Of a stretch of 39,135 nucleotides of DNA, positions 13,443-20,614 are shown piece after piece. Below the pieces are notes generated by a model. That model made no database searches. It saw nothing but the letters and a program-made list of their open reading frames with translations, and was not told the DNA's origin. The stretch is from Bacteriovoracaceae bacterium (GTDB lineage Bacteria > Bdellovibrionota > Bacteriovoracia > Bacteriovoracales > Bacteriovoracaceae): the NCBI GenBank assembly GCA_018649885.1, contig JABIHA010000095.1, positions 1 to 39,135 of the forward strand. Direction: 5' to 3'. The position numbers were made by a program, and so were the translations under genes. Position 1 is the first letter of the stretch, and the number at the start of each line of letters is the position of its first letter.

Positions 13443-13568
13443 GTATTTGATCTTACCTCTTAAGCTCAACAACTACAAATAGCTGAAATAGCTTTCAATG
13501 AGTGGGGAGATCTTTTCACCCTATCATTGCTGGGGCGCGCAAGGCAAAATAGATCTCAAGGAGTTTCT

Positions 13569-14216
13569 ATGGATGGTGAATTAAAAACTTTGATCGAGCA
13601 AATTCTCAAAAAACAAAAATCTCTGAGCTCAACTATCAGTTACTCTCCTTCTCTAGATATCAATACTCTCAAACAAAGTGGTACCCAACTACTGTCTCAG
13701 CATACCCAAGACTGCTCTGTTCAAAAAGCGTTGCTCAACCACTATTTCAATGCCACACTTTGGTCCCTTGAAGACAAGGCCCGTGACCCCAAGGCGCTAG
13801 ATTGTGAAATCGCGGCCGTAAAAAGAAAAATTGATAAGGTTAATCAGCTCAGAAATGATCAAGTAGAAGTGATAAATGAATTATTTTTAAACTTTCTTCC
13901 CCCACTCAACCAAAGTGCACCCATATTCTCAGAAACGCCAGGAAGTATCATAGACAGGCTATCAATCCTGAATCTCAAACTCTACTACACTAAAGAGCAA
14001 CTTTTAGACAAAAGTTCTGACTACGCTCATCTAAATACGTGCCACAAGAGAACTCAAATCCTAAATGATCAAATTTCAGATCTATTTCAAGGACTGATAT
14101 ACTTGATCAATAAAGTTTCTATTGGAGAGATGTCTTATAGACCATACTACCAACTAAAAATGTACAATGATGCCAACTTTAATCCTTACCTCAGTAATAA
14201 AGCTCGCCCTTACTAA
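13569..14216 (+). CDS. DUF4254-domain protein
   Basis: LWSLED.AR, KRKIDKVNQLRND, SETPGSIIDRLSILNLK and QLKMYND; AAGGAG SD. Confidence 0.85.
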   Translation: MDGELKTLIEQILKKQKSLSSTISYSPSLDINTLKQSGTQLLSQHTQDCSVQKALLNHYFNATLWSLEDKARDPKALDCEIAAVKRKIDKVNQLRNDQVEVINELFLNFLPPLNQSAPIFSETPGSIIDRLSILNLKLYYTKEQLLDKSSDYAHLNTCHKRTQILNDQISDLFQGLIYLINKVSIGEMSYRPYYQLKMYNDANFNPYLSNKARPY

Positions 14217-14245
14217 ATTACTTCTCAACATACCCATTTCTTCTA

Positions 14246-14269
14246 TATAATAATGACCAAGTCATTATT
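14246..14269 (+). promoter_or_regulatory. -10 box overlapped by a perfect 9-3-9 operator palindrome
   Basis: TATAAT at 14246-14251; AATAATGAC-CAA-GTCATTATT at 14249-14269. Confidence 0.7.
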
Positions 14270-14292
14270 TATTCAATTGGCGGGGGAAAATT

Positions 14293-15717
14293 ATGGGACA
14301 TGCAGGAGCTGCTCACCCTATTTACGATGCAATAATTGTAGGCTCTGGTGTTTCCGGATCATACGTGGCCTACGAGCTTTGTAAAAAGGGTTTAAATTGT
14401 CTTTTACTAGAGGCAGGACAAAACTTAAACAAACACACTTACCCAAGAACAGAAATGGATGGCAATGCCAACCTCTACTGGTCCGGGGGAATTGAGTTTA
14501 ATAAAAATGCATCCATTGGTTTTTTAAGACCTAAGGTGGTGGGCGGAGGCTCCATTGTCAATCAGGCCTTACTCGATCGCTTTGATGATATTGCCCTGGA
14601 TTCTTGGCGCGAAAAATCTTCAATTAACTTCTTAAATAGAACAGAGCTTGATCCATTTTATGACCTTGCTGAAGCAGAGCTCGCCATTGAAGAAATCCCT
14701 GAAAAGTATAGAAATGGTAATGCCAATATTTTTAAAGAGGGTTTTGATAAAAATGAATATAAGTGGGCCCCACTAAAGCGTGCTCAAAAAGATTGTAAAT
14801 ACGATCGTGGCAACGATTGCATCGAATGCCTAAATGGATGCAGACTCGATAGCAAGCAAAGCATGCCTGTGACTGTTCTCAAAAAGGCCCTCTCAGGAGA
14901 GCTCCCCGGAAAACTGACTATTGTTTCAGATTTTGAAGTGGGCACCGTCTCTCACGGTACAAGCGATAAAAAAATTGTTGGATTTTACAAAAATGGCGAT
15001 GTCGAAACCTTCAAAGCAAAGATTGTTGTCCTCGGTGCAGGATCAATGGGCAATACAAAAATTTTGACCCAAAGTGATTTTGGCAAAAAACTTAAATCCA
15101 TAGGCCATCACTTTTATACCCATCCACAATACATGGTACTTGCAAGATATGATAAAAAAATTAATGCCCATAAAGGCCCTCTTCAATCTCTTAAGTCTGA
15201 TGATCTAAACTTTAGACAAAATGGATTTAAGTTAGAGAATGTTTTTGCAGGTCCAGTGGCCATTTCTATGCTCCTTCCACAATGGGGAGACAATCACAGT
15301 AAAATCATGAATGACATCACCAAACTGGCCTGTATTGAAGTAGCAGTCAGGGATACAAATCCTGGAAAAATTTCTATTAATAGAAGTGGTAAAATAATTG
15401 TTGATAAAGTTCTAAACGGTGAAGATAAGCTTAGAAGATCAAAAGGCCTTAAGGCCATTGAAAATATTTTCAACTCTACAGGCGCCGTCGAAATTATTGA
15501 AGGTCAACTCCCAATAGGACTACATCTAATGGGCGGTTGCGGAATTGGAACGGACGGAAAATCAAGTGTGTTTAATCCAGAGTTTGAGCTCCACGATCAA
15601 AAAGGGATTTACGCTGCTGATTCAAGTATTTTCCCCAACGCCCCAGGAATAAACCCATCATTAACTATTATGGCACTAAGTATAAAATGTGCTGAACAAA
15701 TAACAGCGAGCATGTAA
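14293..15717 (+). CDS. GMC-family FAD oxidoreductase (long-chain alcohol oxidase-like)
   Basis: IVGSGVSG Rossmann motif, VGGGSIVN, C-x2-C-x2-GC, HLMGG and DSSIFP...GINPSLTIMA. Confidence 0.9.
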   Translation: MGHAGAAHPIYDAIIVGSGVSGSYVAYELCKKGLNCLLLEAGQNLNKHTYPRTEMDGNANLYWSGGIEFNKNASIGFLRPKVVGGGSIVNQALLDRFDDIALDSWREKSSINFLNRTELDPFYDLAEAELAIEEIPEKYRNGNANIFKEGFDKNEYKWAPLKRAQKDCKYDRGNDCIECLNGCRLDSKQSMPVTVLKKALSGELPGKLTIVSDFEVGTVSHGTSDKKIVGFYKNGDVETFKAKIVVLGAGSMGNTKILTQSDFGKKLKSIGHHFYTHPQYMVLARYDKKINAHKGPLQSLKSDDLNFRQNGFKLENVFAGPVAISMLLPQWGDNHSKIMNDITKLACIEVAVRDTNPGKISINRSGKIIVDKVLNGEDKLRRSKGLKAIENIFNSTGAVEIIEGQLPIGLHLMGGCGIGTDGKSSVFNPEFELHDQKGIYAADSSIFPNAPGINPSLTIMALSIKCAEQITASM

Positions 15718-17669
15718 TGGCATCAAAATACCTAGACAAGACTTCTCTTCGTGGACTAGAAAAAGTTGGAAATGTCCTGATTCCAGGAAATCAGCACTAT
15801 CCCAAATTTTCTCATTTGCGGACCCTTAGAAATATTGATCGTATCATTGGAGAGCTGCCTTCAGCGGACCTCACTGATTTGGCGCTATTTTTAAAAGTCC
15901 TGGCCTGGACGCCAAGTCTTTTTATAAAAGCATTATTCTGGCTTATCACCAAAAAAGACCTCTTTCCTGATTTCCTTGCAGGCCCTCTGAGGCTCATGGA
16001 TATTGGTCTTAAAGGAATTATCTACACATTATATTATTCGAACACGTCTCAAACAGAAAATATTTTAAAATCAATGGAATACTGTGCTGAAACACCATCT
16101 TATGAGGGAAGCCCAATGCAAACAAATACAGCTGCCATGACACCTGATGAAGGTAATTTAGAAAGTGGGTCAATTGATCTAGACAAAATTTTTGAAAAAG
16201 CCAAGAATGCCGGCTCACAAATTGGAAAACTGACAATTAGAGAAAGACTGGCTCCATTAATAGAACTTAAAGAGCTTGTTTTAGAAAGACAAGAAGAGCT
16301 CATAGATATAATCCAAAAAGAAACAAATAAATCTCGCTCAGATGCTCTTTTTTCCGAAATTTTTCCCATTGTGGACACGCTCCACTGGATGGAAGTAGAA
16401 GCTGAAAATATTTTGAAAGATAAGAAAGTTAAAACCCCAATAGTCCTTATGGGAAAAACCTCATATATCTATCATCAAGGGTTAGGAGTCGTACTTGTTA
16501 TATCTCCTTGGAACTACCCTCTCTTTCAAGCGCTAGTACCCATTGCCCACGCTCTTATTTGTGGCAATGCAGTCATATACAAACCTTCTGAGTTCACTCC
16601 ACTAAAAGGTGCCGTAGAGTCACTTTTAAACGACGCAGGAGTATCATCTGATTTAGTTCAAGTTATCTACGGCGGTGGAAAACTTGGAAGTGATCTAATC
16701 GAAAAAAGGCCAGACAAAATATTTTTCACAGGAAGTGTAGGAACTGGAAAAAAGATAATGCAACAGGCGGGCAAACATCTGATTCCCGTCGAGCTAGAAC
16801 TAGGCGGAAAAGACCCCATGATTGTTTTTGAAGATGCCAATATCCAAAGATCTGTCAAAGGAGCCGCTTGGGGGGCCATGACAAATGCAGGACAGTCCTG
16901 CACCTCTGTAGAAAGGCTCTATGTTCATGAGGATATCTATGAGAATTTTAAAAGTGAGCTGATTGTTGAAGTTGGCAAAATCAAACAACTAATTGACACC
17001 AACGGCAATAGCGATATTGGTCACATGACCAACTCACAGCAAGCAAAAAAAGTCAGGGCCTTAGTCCTCGACGCTGTGGCCAAAGGTGCAAAAGCTCTAA
17101 CAAATGAGTACTGGATAGAATCCCCAAAATCAGAGCTAGAAATACCCGCCATTGTCCTTGAAGGCGTTACCAGTGAAATGGAAATTTGGGACTGCGAAAT
17201 CTTTGGACCAATCCTCCCTATTTTTAAATTTTCATCAGAAATCGATGTCATCAATCGCGCCAATGATTCTTCGTTTGGACTCTCGGCGAGTGTCTGGACA
17301 GCAGATAAAACCAGGGCCACGAGAGTGACCAAATCACTTGAAACTGGCAATGTCTCAGTAAATAATGTGATGCTGACCGAAGGCAACCCATACCTCCCAT
17401 TTGGTGGAGTTAAAAATAGCGGCATAGGACGCTACAAAGGGGCCCATGGCCTTTTAAGCTTTTGCAATATCAAGTCTGTTCTCTTTGACGGTAATAGCTC
17501 TAAAGTTGAGGCCAATTGGTATCCGTATACCACAGAGAAATATCATCTTTTTGACAACTTAATGCAGGCCCTATTCAAAGGTGGAATTATGGGCCTTATT
17601 AAATTTGCCTTCTATGGTTTAAAACTAGAGATGCTCTCTGGGAAGTTGGGGAAAAAGGGTCGTGCATGA
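15717..17669 (+). CDS. Aldehyde dehydrogenase with a fused ~133-aa N-terminal helical domain
   Basis: ISPWNYP, KPSE, FTGS, LELGGKD, NAGQSC (catalytic Cys), EIFGP and PFGGVK; coupled to the GMC gene by TAATG. Confidence 0.92.
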   Translation: MASKYLDKTSLRGLEKVGNVLIPGNQHYPKFSHLRTLRNIDRIIGELPSADLTDLALFLKVLAWTPSLFIKALFWLITKKDLFPDFLAGPLRLMDIGLKGIIYTLYYSNTSQTENILKSMEYCAETPSYEGSPMQTNTAAMTPDEGNLESGSIDLDKIFEKAKNAGSQIGKLTIRERLAPLIELKELVLERQEELIDIIQKETNKSRSDALFSEIFPIVDTLHWMEVEAENILKDKKVKTPIVLMGKTSYIYHQGLGVVLVISPWNYPLFQALVPIAHALICGNAVIYKPSEFTPLKGAVESLLNDAGVSSDLVQVIYGGGKLGSDLIEKRPDKIFFTGSVGTGKKIMQQAGKHLIPVELELGGKDPMIVFEDANIQRSVKGAAWGAMTNAGQSCTSVERLYVHEDIYENFKSELIVEVGKIKQLIDTNGNSDIGHMTNSQQAKKVRALVLDAVAKGAKALTNEYWIESPKSELEIPAIVLEGVTSEMEIWDCEIFGPILPIFKFSSEIDVINRANDSSFGLSASVWTADKTRATRVTKSLETGNVSVNNVMLTEGNPYLPFGGVKNSGIGRYKGAHGLLSFCNIKSVLFDGNSSKVEANWYPYTTEKYHLFDNLMQALFKGGIMGLIKFAFYGLKLEMLSGKLGKKGRA

Positions 17670-18874
17670 TTTGGGAATATGAAAAGTTATCTTCATTAAA
17701 TAAGAAGATCGCTTTTCCCGCGCTATTTGTAGACTTAAATATTGTAGATCAAAATATTGAAAACTATACAAGTTACGCTATCAGGTATTCAAAAACGCTA
17801 AGGCTTGCAACAAAATCAATTCGAAATATTTGGCTTATAAAGTATATCCTAAAACGCTCTAATGTTTTTGAAGGAGTTATGTGCTACAGCGTTCATGAAG
17901 CACAACACCTATTTGATAATGGAATTGATGATCTCTTAATCGCTTATCCCCAAATTGATTTTGACTCACTTGCTGGACTTCTTGATCTTGCAAAAAAAGG
18001 GGCCAACTTCTCTATGGCCTGTGACCATAGCGAACAACTTTCTATCATAGATAAATATTGGAATGAATTCGCGGGAGACCTCCCCCCATTTCCCCTTTGC
18101 CTTGACCTCGATGTAAGCCTCAGGCCACTTCCATTCGTTCACATAGGAGCATTAAGATCATCAATTGTAGATATTGCCGGTCTTAAAGCTTGCATTGAAA
18201 AAGTAAACTCTTTAAATAATTTGAAAATTAAAGGCATACTTACCTATGAAGCACAGATAGCAAGCCTCCAAGACCAAAGTCCCTTCACCGTTTTATTAAA
18301 TCCCATAAAAAAACTCATTAAATCTTGGGCCATAAAAGATGTGAAAAAGAAAAGGGAAGAAATCACAAAATACCTAAAAGTTAGTGGCATTCAGTACGAC
18401 TACTATAATGGTGGTGGCTCAGGCTCTTTGCCCTATACTTCAAAAGAGCCTTGGATAAGTGAAGTCACTGTAGGCTCAGGCCTTCTCGAGTCCCATATAT
18501 TTGATTATATTTCGGATAATAAAAATCGCCCTGCCATAGTTTTTGGCCTCAATATAACCAGAAGACCAAAAAAAGGCGTTGTCACATGTCAAAGCGGTGG
18601 ATTTATAGCAAGTGGAGAAATGGGAAAAGATAAATTTCCACTCCCGTATAGGCCTGTGGGCATGAAGTACATCCCAATGGAAATGGCAGGGGAAGTTCAG
18701 ACTCCACTATCCGGACCCTGGGCAGACAAACTGAGTGTTGGAGACCCTGTCTTTTTTCGACCATCAAAGGCCGGAGAAATAGCAGAAAGATTTAATTTAT
18801 ATCACTTTTTAAGAGATGGTGAAGTTGAAAGTAGTGCGAGTACCTATAGGGGGGACGGTAAGGCTTTTTACTGA
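17666..18874 (+). CDS. Fold-type III PLP enzyme (alanine racemase / DSD1 / D-threonine aldolase-like)
   Basis: PALFVD, RLATKSIR (PLP lysine), DLLIAYP, TYEAQIA, NGGGSGS, EVTVGSG and GEVQTP; ATGA overlap. Confidence 0.85.
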   Translation: MIWEYEKLSSLNKKIAFPALFVDLNIVDQNIENYTSYAIRYSKTLRLATKSIRNIWLIKYILKRSNVFEGVMCYSVHEAQHLFDNGIDDLLIAYPQIDFDSLAGLLDLAKKGANFSMACDHSEQLSIIDKYWNEFAGDLPPFPLCLDLDVSLRPLPFVHIGALRSSIVDIAGLKACIEKVNSLNNLKIKGILTYEAQIASLQDQSPFTVLLNPIKKLIKSWAIKDVKKKREEITKYLKVSGIQYDYYNGGGSGSLPYTSKEPWISEVTVGSGLLESHIFDYISDNKNRPAIVFGLNITRRPKKGVVTCQSGGFIASGEMGKDKFPLPYRPVGMKYIPMEMAGEVQTPLSGPWADKLSVGDPVFFRPSKAGEIAERFNLYHFLRDGEVESSASTYRGDGKAFY

Positions 18875-18883
18875 AGGTAGTAA

Positions 18884-20614
18884 ATGGATAACACTTATTC
18901 TTATAATTACATCCAAGGTGTCAATTTTCTCAAGGTTAAAGGCTCCCATTCTTATAGGGCCAGAATCCACGGAAGAGTACTCAAAGACCAAATTAGGGTA
19001 GGAGCACTTCCAACGCTCGCTGAAATTAATGATTGGATGTTAAGAAGGGCAGAAGGCCCTGTCGAAATTCCCATGGTAAGAAACTTTCTAATCTACCTAT
19101 ACAATAAAGTTTTAATGCCCAAGCTTGAAGCCTCTGTGGCGCGCTCAGCACCCTACTACCTTGAAGTGATGAAAGCACTTAGCGAGGAGACAGGCCTTCA
19201 TAAAAACCTTATTAGAAATGCACTTTTCCAGGCCGATGGCATTATGGTTTTATCTAGACTAAGCGTAATGAAATACCTGATGACTGATATGCCCATAACG
19301 TGTCTTCCATGTTGCTCAAGTTCTGTGGCCTTTAACGAGTACACAGATGATGGAAGAATGATAGTGGCCAGGAATCAAGACTATCCCATTGTAGGCCCAT
19401 GGGAAAAACACCCCTTGGTATTTTTTAACATCCCTACTGAAAAAGATCTCATTCCCTATATTTCTATTACCTCCAGTGGAGTTCAAACTGGTGGTCTGAC
19501 TGCTACAAACAAAGAAGGCTTGACTCTGGCAACCCACGCTCACCTGGGAACAGAAATCTCAACAGATGGACTTCCAGTATTTCTTCTGGGCGAGATGATT
19601 ATATCAAAAGCAAAAACCATAGATGAAGCAATCAAAATTGCAAGAAATTATACCAGAAATGCCAACTGGGCCTATATCATATCAAGTCATAAAGAAAATA
19701 AAGTGGTTGTACTTGAGTGCACACCCAAAGAAGTTTTTGTGAGAGAGCCAAGTGTAGGAAAAATGACTCACACAAATTACTTCCAATCTGAAGCACTCAA
19801 AAATAAAGAGGCCTTAATTTCGGCCAGTGTTCTTGAAGATTTATACGGCAGAAGACTGAGAATGGATCAATATTTAGACCACAATAAGGGAAAATTAAAT
19901 CCCGATTTGATGATGAAAATGCTTGGCGATCACGTGGACTATTTTAGTGGAACAGAAAGAGTTTTTGGAAATACAGTAAGTGTCATCACAAGTATTAAAT
20001 CGGTTGTATTTGATCCCAGTAAAAGTAGACTCTACGTGGGCAACAGACATGAGTCACCGGTGGGACTCGGAAACTTTCTTGAACTTGATTTAGAAAAAAT
20101 GTGGGATATGGATTTTTCTGAGCTCGGTGAACTTCCGGTTCACCCCGGTTACCAGCCCCAGTCACCAAAATTAATCCAGGCCGTAAGCGAATACCGAGAG
20201 GCCTACCGCTGCTTTCACATAGAAAATTTTCACGACGATTACATGATTAACACTCGGAATCATTTAAGAAAAGCTGTCAGAACTTTTCCCCAGGATGGTC
20301 ACATGCAACTGCAAATGGCACTGGTTTACTTCAAAACAAAATCACCTAAAAAAGCTCTTTTTCACTTCCAAAAGGCCCGCGAAATGGGCCTAACTCACCA
20401 CCTAGAAGGGGTTTGTAAGCTTTTTCACGCAAGGTGCCTAGATCTTGTTGGCAGAAGAAAGGAGGCAAAGGAGATCTACAAAAGCACCCTTGAAGAAATC
20501 AACGAGCCCGGTCTCAAAGAGGCGCTACAAAAGGGGCTTTCCAGTAAATATAAAAAGAAAATGCTCTCCCACTTGATGCTAGATTTACAGTTTCCGGCAC
20601 CCCATCATTACTAG
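18884..20614 (+). CDS. C45 / acid-ceramidase-like Cys Ntn-hydrolase with a C-terminal TPR region
   Basis: CCSS autoprocessing site, ARNQDY, N.EGL and HTNY motifs; TPR-like helices in the last ~130 aa. Confidence 0.8.
   Translation: MDNTYSYNYIQGVNFLKVKGSHSYRARIHGRVLKDQIRVGALPTLAEINDWMLRRAEGPVEIPMVRNFLIYLYNKVLMPKLEASVARSAPYYLEVMKALSEETGLHKNLIRNALFQADGIMVLSRLSVMKYLMTDMPITCLPCCSSSVAFNEYTDDGRMIVARNQDYPIVGPWEKHPLVFFNIPTEKDLIPYISITSSGVQTGGLTATNKEGLTLATHAHLGTEISTDGLPVFLLGEMIISKAKTIDEAIKIARNYTRNANWAYIISSHKENKVVVLECTPKEVFVREPSVGKMTHTNYFQSEALKNKEALISASVLEDLYGRRLRMDQYLDHNKGKLNPDLMMKMLGDHVDYFSGTERVFGNTVSVITSIKSVVFDPSKSRLYVGNRHESPVGLGNFLELDLEKMWDMDFSELGELPVHPGYQPQSPKLIQAVSEYREAYRCFHIENFHDDYMINTRNHLRKAVRTFPQDGHMQLQMALVYFKTKSPKKALFHFQKAREMGLTHHLEGVCKLFHARCLDLVGRRKEAKEIYKSTLEEINEPGLKEALQKGLSSKYKKKMLSHLMLDLQFPAPHHY

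Follow-up and report, generated by a model that had tools for sequence, protein, structure and literature searches.

A four-gene operon of a Bacteriovoracaceae bacterium as a candidate kinase-free route for sphingoid-base breakdown

We analysed a 39,135-nucleotide stretch of DNA (the window; contig JABIHA010000095.1 of assembly GCA_018649885.1, from a Bacteriovoracaceae bacterium) that carries a four-gene operon. Open reading frame (ORF) calls and family searches give the gene order, all on the + strand, as a GMC-family dehydrogenase, an aldehyde dehydrogenase (ALDH), a pyridoxal phosphate (PLP) enzyme and a C45 amidase; the earlier note on this DNA had named the amidase first. Taken as a whole, the operon is on balance best explained as a cytoplasmic, kinase-free route for the breakdown of sphingoid bases. 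In this route, an amidase would strip the N-acyl chain from ceramide, a step that neutral or alkaline ceramidases would take in relatives and that would here probably fall to the C45 protein; it is the weakest step of the proposal. The GMC dehydrogenase and its small subunit would then oxidise the C1 alcohol to an aldehyde, the job of SphC-like oxidases in other genomes, and the ALDH, tethered to the GMC protein through the fused small subunit, would oxidise the reactive 2-amino aldehyde to an acid. The resulting D (2R,3R) acid would be cleaved at C2–C3 by the D-threonine-aldolase-like PLP enzyme to yield glycine and hexadecanal or hexadecenal, and the fatty aldehyde would enter fatty-acid metabolism through the operon ALDH or another ALDH. 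C1 oxidation followed by cleavage to glycine and a fatty aldehyde, taken jointly and judged from sequence comparisons, is rather probable.

The proposal draws on two comparative patterns, the oxidases that accompany the PLP enzyme and the ceramidases found beside it. The phylum was sampled as a fixed set of 300 genomes, 42 with an orthologue of the PLP enzyme (PLP-positive) and 258 without (PLP-negative, including G271 with a weak match at E 5e-4). A GMC orthologue was present in 29 of the 42 PLP-positive and 4 of the 258 PLP-negative genomes, and a SphC-like oxidase of the ALO family in 14 and none, respectively. One or the other was found in 41 of the PLP-positive genomes; two had both, and there the ALO protein was the most distant (33%) and unlinked. 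With a further sample of relatives, we obtained 49 PLP loci, each covering 8 kb on either side (the truncated locus L037 stands outside this set). The GMC gene lay within this range at 28 loci and the SphC-like gene at 11, with no locus having both. The linked SphC-like oxidase is 32–34% identical over about 425 amino acids to Pseudomonas aeruginosa SphC, taken from a P. aeruginosa-like sphBCD reference that was retrieved through a published primer. Given this identity and the near-exclusive distribution, the GMC module and the SphC homologue appear to fill one slot, as the earlier note had proposed in placing a GMC where SphC would be. Outside the phylum, all five of the annotated records that we opened have the PLP gene beside an ALO oxidase or one gene away. 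In a Mycobacterium record, an M28 hydrolase lies between the two, an arrangement that presumably resembles Rv1769–Rv1771. One source lists Rv1769 as a putative aldehyde-lyase (PMC8562490). Other genes also adjoin the module: an M16 peptidase gene of about 890 codons at five loci of five families (L084, L090, L094, L109 and L111), and a FadL/TodX-like porin with a protein of about 1540 residues upstream of the PLP–GMC operon at two loci (L025:14981-16288 and L030:1684-3024), which may point to lipid uptake.

Within 8 kb of the PLP gene, we found a neutral ceramidase at 13 of the 49 loci (seven with GMC and six with a SphC-like oxidase) and a CREST alkaline ceramidase at four, so that 17 loci have a ceramidase of either kind. 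Full-length neutral ceramidases are encoded in 15 of the 42 PLP-positive and 11 of the 258 PLP-negative genomes. In 12 of those 15, spanning 8 genera and 2 families, the ceramidase lies within 8 kb of the PLP gene, against a chance expectation of 0.08. All 13 PLP-linked neutral ceramidases keep the HTH metal motif, and one was compared with P. aeruginosa CerN and matched it at E 5e-63. Two PLP-negative genomes (G132 and G108; loci L230 and L231) carry an operon of an FGGY kinase, a sphingosine-1-phosphate (S1P) lyase (E 6e-191) and a short neutral ceramidase, and these short ceramidases share a clade (FastTree support 0.99) with three PLP-linked ones. The same type standing beside a clear S1P lyase provides a positive control for what these ceramidases act on. 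In one Bacillus thuringiensis record (L046:4949-9456), a PLP and ALO pair directly follows cerA and a sphingomyelinase C gene. Together with the distribution of the oxidases, these neighbours support the sphingoid-base substrate that the earlier note had suggested. EEP-family neighbours (7 of 49 loci) were considered as evidence of sphingomyelinases and set aside, being 21–23% identical to a sphingomyelinase. In the host genome, which is 92% complete, we found no S1P lyase. A serine-palmitoyltransferase-like gene (best match NF047600, 438 bits against a cut-off of 640) overlaps a NAD-dependent epimerase/reductase gene elsewhere in that genome (L161:1369-3587; contig C30 of G000), and the host may accordingly make its own sphingolipids.

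The GMC protein (PF00732/PF05199) has the GxGxxG motif for flavin adenine dinucleotide (FAD), both the N- and C-terminal GMC domains and the His411/Asn454 pair. All 34 aligned orthologues keep four cysteines (Cys168, Cys176, Cys179 and Cys183), which form a probable iron–sulfur site. The clusters matched by its Atlas model include a long-chain-alcohol oxidase one, at a template-modelling (TM) score of 0.93, and several unnamed GMC ones; Bacteroidota are the commonest phylum in its top Atlas cluster. The ALDH ORF (PF00171; 15717–17669, 650 amino acids) has the PWN, FTGS, ELGGK, GQSC and EIFGP motifs and is about 135 residues overlong, its N-terminus resembling a small ORF that adjoins the GMC gene in relatives. 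Among the 13 loci with both a small subunit and an ALDH, the two are fused in nine and separate in four. The small-subunit domain is predicted to bind the GMC protein: the modelled complex scored 0.91 (best control 0.60), with contact agreement between runs of at least 93% and a partner predicted local distance difference test (pLDDT) of at least 84. Of 157 solved pairs, 116 reach the mark that it passed, as do 2 of 215 mismatched ones; its passing may stem from likeness to solved dehydrogenase subunit pairs. The small subunit had no Pfam match to PF13618 (gluconate 2-dehydrogenase subunit 3-like) at E ≤ 0.1, and it matches Atlas clusters with 37–38% PF13618 members at a TM score of 0.58, below the naming bar. 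ALDH orthologues occur at 13 of the 28 GMC loci and at none of the 11 SphC-like loci, and because they stand only beside GMC, the C1 aldehyde is more likely to be the ALDH substrate than the fatty aldehyde. Of the two roles that the earlier note gave this enzyme, a part in C1 oxidation with the GMC protein is thus favoured, and oxidation of the fatty aldehyde becomes less likely.

The PLP enzyme belongs to an “amino acid deaminase/aldolase” family with a fold-type III barrel, and Lys50 is invariant in aligned relatives. It has no Pfam match at E ≤ 0.001 and matches the BhcC profile weakly (43.8 bits against a cut-off of 690). The closest solved folds to its model (pLDDT 95.7) are D-threonine aldolase (TM score 0.79–0.81) and BhcC (0.80–0.81). 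By the Cahn–Ingold–Prelog rules, C1 oxidation of D-erythro-sphinganine (2S,3R) gives an amino acid of the D-allo type, (2R,3R); being D-configured, this acid would fit a D-specific fold-III aldolase. The enzyme shares the fold and the PLP lysine of the D-threonine aldolases, which the earlier note had cited together with SphD. It is not an orthologue of SphD: the two are 22% identical (E 2e-9, against a P. aeruginosa-like SphD) and the enzyme sits on a long separate branch, so by sequence it is a distant paralogue from a different aldolase family. These trees were built without L006, L153 and L154 (split or truncated), and IQ-TREE was run in quick mode without the Myxococcota loci L117–L156. 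Split PLP genes were seen in L111 (G165), L006 and L153, through frameshift or assembly error.

The C45 protein (PF03417) scores above the cut-off for NF040521 (117.4 against 85 bits). Its nucleophile, Cys144, is present in 57 of 57 aligned sequences, with R163, N164, D166, N298 and R323 invariant, and its model (pLDDT 93.6) shows a Cys N-terminal nucleophile (Ntn) hydrolase followed by a TPR domain, with Cys144 opening the beta chain. PDB sequence searches returned matches to the TPR part only. Structural comparison with acid ceramidase gave Z 28.3 (root-mean-square deviation (rmsd) 3.2, 312 aligned), with Cys144 aligning to Cys143, and comparison with NAAA gave Z 29.5 (rmsd 3.1, 309 aligned). 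C45 genes stand beside PLP genes in two separate C45 clades, one with the window and G008 and the other with five Myxococcota-type loci; G206 is a looser case, and in G020 a C45 orthologue lies about 9 kb downstream. In neighbourhood clustering of 45 Myxococcota loci, the sole partner that recurred and was recognised as relevant to function was C45 (5 loci). The residue before the nucleophile is Cys in the window (19310–19315) and Gly in 49 of the 57 aligned sequences, which may affect autocleavage.

Several observations weigh against the sphingoid-base route or against parts of it. No ceramidase lies within 8 kb at 32 of the 49 loci, and the clade of 30 rows to which the window's own PLP enzyme belongs has no neutral-ceramidase neighbours and three CREST neighbours, all in one subclade. 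That the module excludes the S1P-lyase route was tested in 27 genomes and rejected: of the 15 genomes that have both PLP enzyme and ceramidase, at least 8 also carry lyase-like genes, so that one route does not exclude the other. Among related genomes, the GMC/SphC-like label changes four times on the PLP tree, with one change forced by well-supported branches, and the swap may therefore represent one to four events. The earlier note proposed checking whether the four genes co-occur in other genomes; the PLP and GMC pair does recur, but the complete set was found at one of the 49 loci (G008). At 40 Myxococcota loci (L117–L156), neither a GMC nor a SphC-like gene neighbours the PLP gene, which mostly stands alone, and five C45- or PLP-bearing genomes tested lack both orthologues. 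In Pseudomonas, a 2025 study by DiGianivittorio reports that sphBC is needed and sphD dispensable, that the SphC product is unidentified and that direct action of SphC is not demonstrated (PMC11893366). In the PLP enzyme, the catalytic His after the Y-x-G motif is not kept, the position being Ser200 here and Gly in 95 of 98 relatives. Near the C-terminus, beyond the reach of the PDB alignments, it has a conserved Lys368/Glu371, which we take to lie where the His/Asp divalent-metal site of D-threonine aldolase and BhcC would be. The closest fold to that of the C45 protein is isopenicillin N acyltransferase (IAT; Z 39.7, rmsd 2.5, 339 aligned), 10 Z units above acid ceramidase and NAAA, which at 14–17% identity are thus not its closest family. 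It adjoins the PLP gene at 2 of the 49 phylum loci, one of them with an intervening gene. Close C45 orthologues occur in 5 of the 42 PLP-positive and 6 of the 258 PLP-negative genomes, none adjoining a PLP gene, and the wider C45(-TPR) family in 13 and 45, respectively. The host genome encodes two neutral and three CREST ceramidase-like proteins elsewhere, besides one EEP-family gene (contigs C148, C28, C7, C71, C72 and C112 of G000), so that C45 is not needed for deacylation. The earlier note's claim that the amidase deacylates ceramide therefore keeps its basis in Cys-Ntn kinship with acid ceramidase and loses ground on adjacency, closest fold and tracking of the PLP enzyme. From its sequence and predicted fold, we lean slightly against the C45 protein being a ceramidase.

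These points would fit a reading in which the GMC, ALDH and PLP enzymes degrade sphingoid bases and true ceramidases encoded elsewhere supply them, with the C45-TPR protein acting on an N-acyl amino acid, a lipopeptide, a TPR-recognised acylated protein or N-acyl glycine-type products. This is a real possibility, if a somewhat doubtful one. It gains from how common C45-TPR is in genomes without the PLP enzyme, from the fold closest to IAT and the five other ceramidase-like genes, and from 16 other C45 loci at which 33 scanned flanking ORFs included no ceramidase, GMC or PLP neighbour. It does not explain why, in two C45 clades and across two phyla, C45 immediately follows the PLP gene (9 nt apart here), and the Ntn family does take in acid ceramidase and NAAA. 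The module might instead have a different substrate, be it a long-chain or bulky 2-amino-1,3-diol or an amino-lipid (sulfonolipid bases, serinol amides or chloramphenicol-like compounds), with the ceramidase-family neighbours being broad amidases. The amidase slot is also taken by M28 peptidases (5 of 49 loci) and an amidase-signature enzyme (one), PF04734 and PF05875 are both broad families, the weak PDB matches include a chloramphenicol-oxidising GMC (E 4e-7), and the PLP active site is unlike that of D-threonine aldolase. We nevertheless judge this unlikely, as ceramidases of two unrelated families converge on one PLP family together with a sphingomyelinase gene and a SphC homologue, and the same ceramidase type is paired with S1P lyase elsewhere.

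The chemistry of the last step could also differ. If the PLP enzyme were a dehydratase/deaminase or a racemase, the oxidised base would end up as a 2-oxo fatty acid through loss of water and ammonia. D-serine dehydratase and hydroxyaspartate dehydratase belong to the fold family (TM score 0.73–0.76) and the aldolase His is not conserved, yet aldolases outrank dehydratases both by structure and by profile, which makes this alternative decidedly improbable. Finally, the oxidases might act on sugars or sugar lactones, with the operon handling an amino-sugar acid. The ALO family name suggests as much, as do an L-gulonolactone activity reported for M. tuberculosis Rv1771 (listed as MtGLDH, with values of 5.5 and 0.041, in PMC11505616) and the best PDB sequence matches of the GMC protein, which are weak ones to fructose and glucose dehydrogenases (E 3e-8). 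Beside the module, however, no sugar transporter or kinase recurs and lipid-amide hydrolases do, and we consider a sugar substrate very improbable.

The tight coupling of the four genes that the earlier note described was confirmed from the sequence: the GMC and ALDH genes overlap by TAATG (15715–15719), the ALDH and PLP genes by ATGA (17666–17669), and the C45 gene starts after a 9-nt gap (18875–18883). The same note placed the operon behind a single palindromic operator. The palindrome is real, with perfect 9-bp arms (14249–14257 and 14261–14269) around a 3-nt spacer, and it overlaps the −10 hexamer, ending at 14251, of a sigma-70-like promoter match (20 such matches were observed and 17.3 in shuffles). 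From the genome-wide density, 0.013 such 9-3-9 repeats would be expected in the 76-bp upstream gap, though intergenic DNA is probably richer in them. Its exact motif has a single copy in the genome (17 sites if up to 3 mismatches are allowed) and was not found upstream of any of 19 related operons, and a family search of the ORFs flanking the operon gave no match to regulator families; for these reasons its role as an operator is plausible but unsupported.

Table 1. Features of the operon and its upstream region in the window
Feature	Position	Strand	Remarks
Sigma-70-like promoter match	14222–14251	+	10/12; chance-level taken alone
Perfect 9-3-9 palindrome	14249–14269		Overlaps the −10 hexamer; may be a repressor site; unconserved in relatives
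GMC-family FAD dehydrogenase, large subunit	14293–15717	+	474 amino acids; predicted C1 oxidase
GMC small-subunit-like domain	15717–16121	+	N-terminal ~135 amino acids of the ALDH ORF; predicted GMC binding
Aldehyde dehydrogenase domain	16122–17669	+	Predicted C1-aldehyde oxidation, possibly fatty aldehyde too
Fold-type III PLP enzyme	17666–18874	+	Lys50; 402 amino acids; predicted retro-aldolase
C45 Cys-Ntn amidase with C-terminal TPR	18884–20614	+	576 amino acids; TPR at about 427–555; candidate N-deacylase

The host is a marine bacterium and probably a Bdellovibrio-type predator. DNA identical to the operon is present in marine metagenomes, with four runs covering 27–30 of 30 bins and no indels or joints among those listed; none of the listed holders of operon DNA is an RNA data set. 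A plasmid collection held no GMC orthologue and no full-length C45 match. Elsewhere in the window, a DUF4254 gene (13527–14216, +) lies 76 bp upstream of the operon and is absent among the scanned neighbours of related operons, and a 653-residue phospholipase D-like protein is encoded at 99–2060 (−).

Oxidation of C1 and aldol cleavage yielding glycine plus a long-chain aldehyde were proposed for Pseudomonas SphC and SphD in 2014, unproven (PMC3900636), so this chemistry was already in print as a hypothesis; the earlier note did not recognise the combination of enzymes from a described pathway. SphC is sphingosine-induced and required for sphingosine removal (PMC3900636, PMC11893366, PMC5150637), and Okino and Ito (2016) report induction by sphingomyelin (PMC5150637). 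The 2025 study reports no co-occurrence outside Firmicutes, Actinobacteria and Proteobacteria (PMC11893366). We found no description of a GMC–ALDH version of the operon or of a C45 ceramidase in a literature search that fell short of most subscription papers and bioRxiv supplements. The comparative pattern offers independent genomic support for an oxidise-then-cleave route, to which it adds a second oxidase module as well as an aldolase family of another kind. It also offers soluble-looking cytoplasmic enzymes of a non-pathogen for assay of a bacterial pathway with chemistry that is as yet unproven. If correct, it would give functions to three uncharacterised families (the GMC clade, the PLP clade and possibly C45-TPR) and point to a way in which predators may recycle the sphingolipids of their prey or their own. 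A wider version, which we consider rather unlikely, would put the PLP family at the centre of a so far unrecognised but widespread pathway for sphingoid-base degradation in bacteria, with two unrelated C1 oxidases, interchangeable amidases and C45-TPR as a new ceramidase family. In that case, the complex of GMC, small subunit and ALDH would channel the amino aldehyde, C45-TPR would be the bacterial counterpart of acid ceramidase, and gene pairs labelled “lactone oxidase + alanine racemase” in Bacillus, Burkholderia, actinobacteria and Bacteroidota would be reassigned.

Each enzyme of the operon has known counterparts. FAD-dependent sugar dehydrogenase complexes (glucose, fructose and gluconate) and long-chain alcohol oxidases likewise pair a Cys-cluster GMC large subunit with a small helical partner; unlike the sugar dehydrogenase complexes, the operon has no cytochrome c subunit, and the small subunit is fused to the ALDH in most relatives that have both. 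D-threonine aldolase (4v15) and BhcC (6qkb) share the fold, the PLP lysine, a Tyr and the phosphate-binding glycine motifs with the PLP enzyme, which is 19–20% identical to them, falls far under the BhcC cut-off and is missing the catalytic His. Acid ceramidase, NAAA and IAT share with the C45 protein the Cys-Ntn fold, the alpha/beta precursor and the aligned nucleophile, but C45 is 13–17% identical to them, closest to IAT, has the extra TPR domain and showed no signal peptide in a rough hydropathy scan. As pathways, the predicted route and that of sphingosine kinase and S1P lyase both lead to a fatty aldehyde after PLP-dependent C2–C3 cleavage; the predicted route would differ in using oxidation rather than phosphorylation, in releasing glycine rather than phosphoethanolamine and in having a fold III rather than a fold I enzyme. 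The P. aeruginosa sphBCD and cerN genes (the SphR regulon) likewise combine a flavin oxidase, a fold-III PLP enzyme and a ceramidase, with the same proposed chemistry. In their stead, the operon has GMC with its small subunit and ALDH rather than SphC and the cytochrome SphB, and the C45 amidase instead of CerN, with no SphR-like regulator adjacent. No scanned ORF of the window matched a cytochrome family, and the only PF04030 match of the genome, the SphC-type (ALO/VAO) oxidase family, lies outside the operon and is 24–25% identical. SphC is periplasmic and SphD has an N-terminal twin-arginine-like leader, whereas the same hydropathy scan saw no export signals in the operon. By these comparisons, the operon resembles the proposed SphC/SphD route in its predicted working, yet it is not a member of sphBCD.

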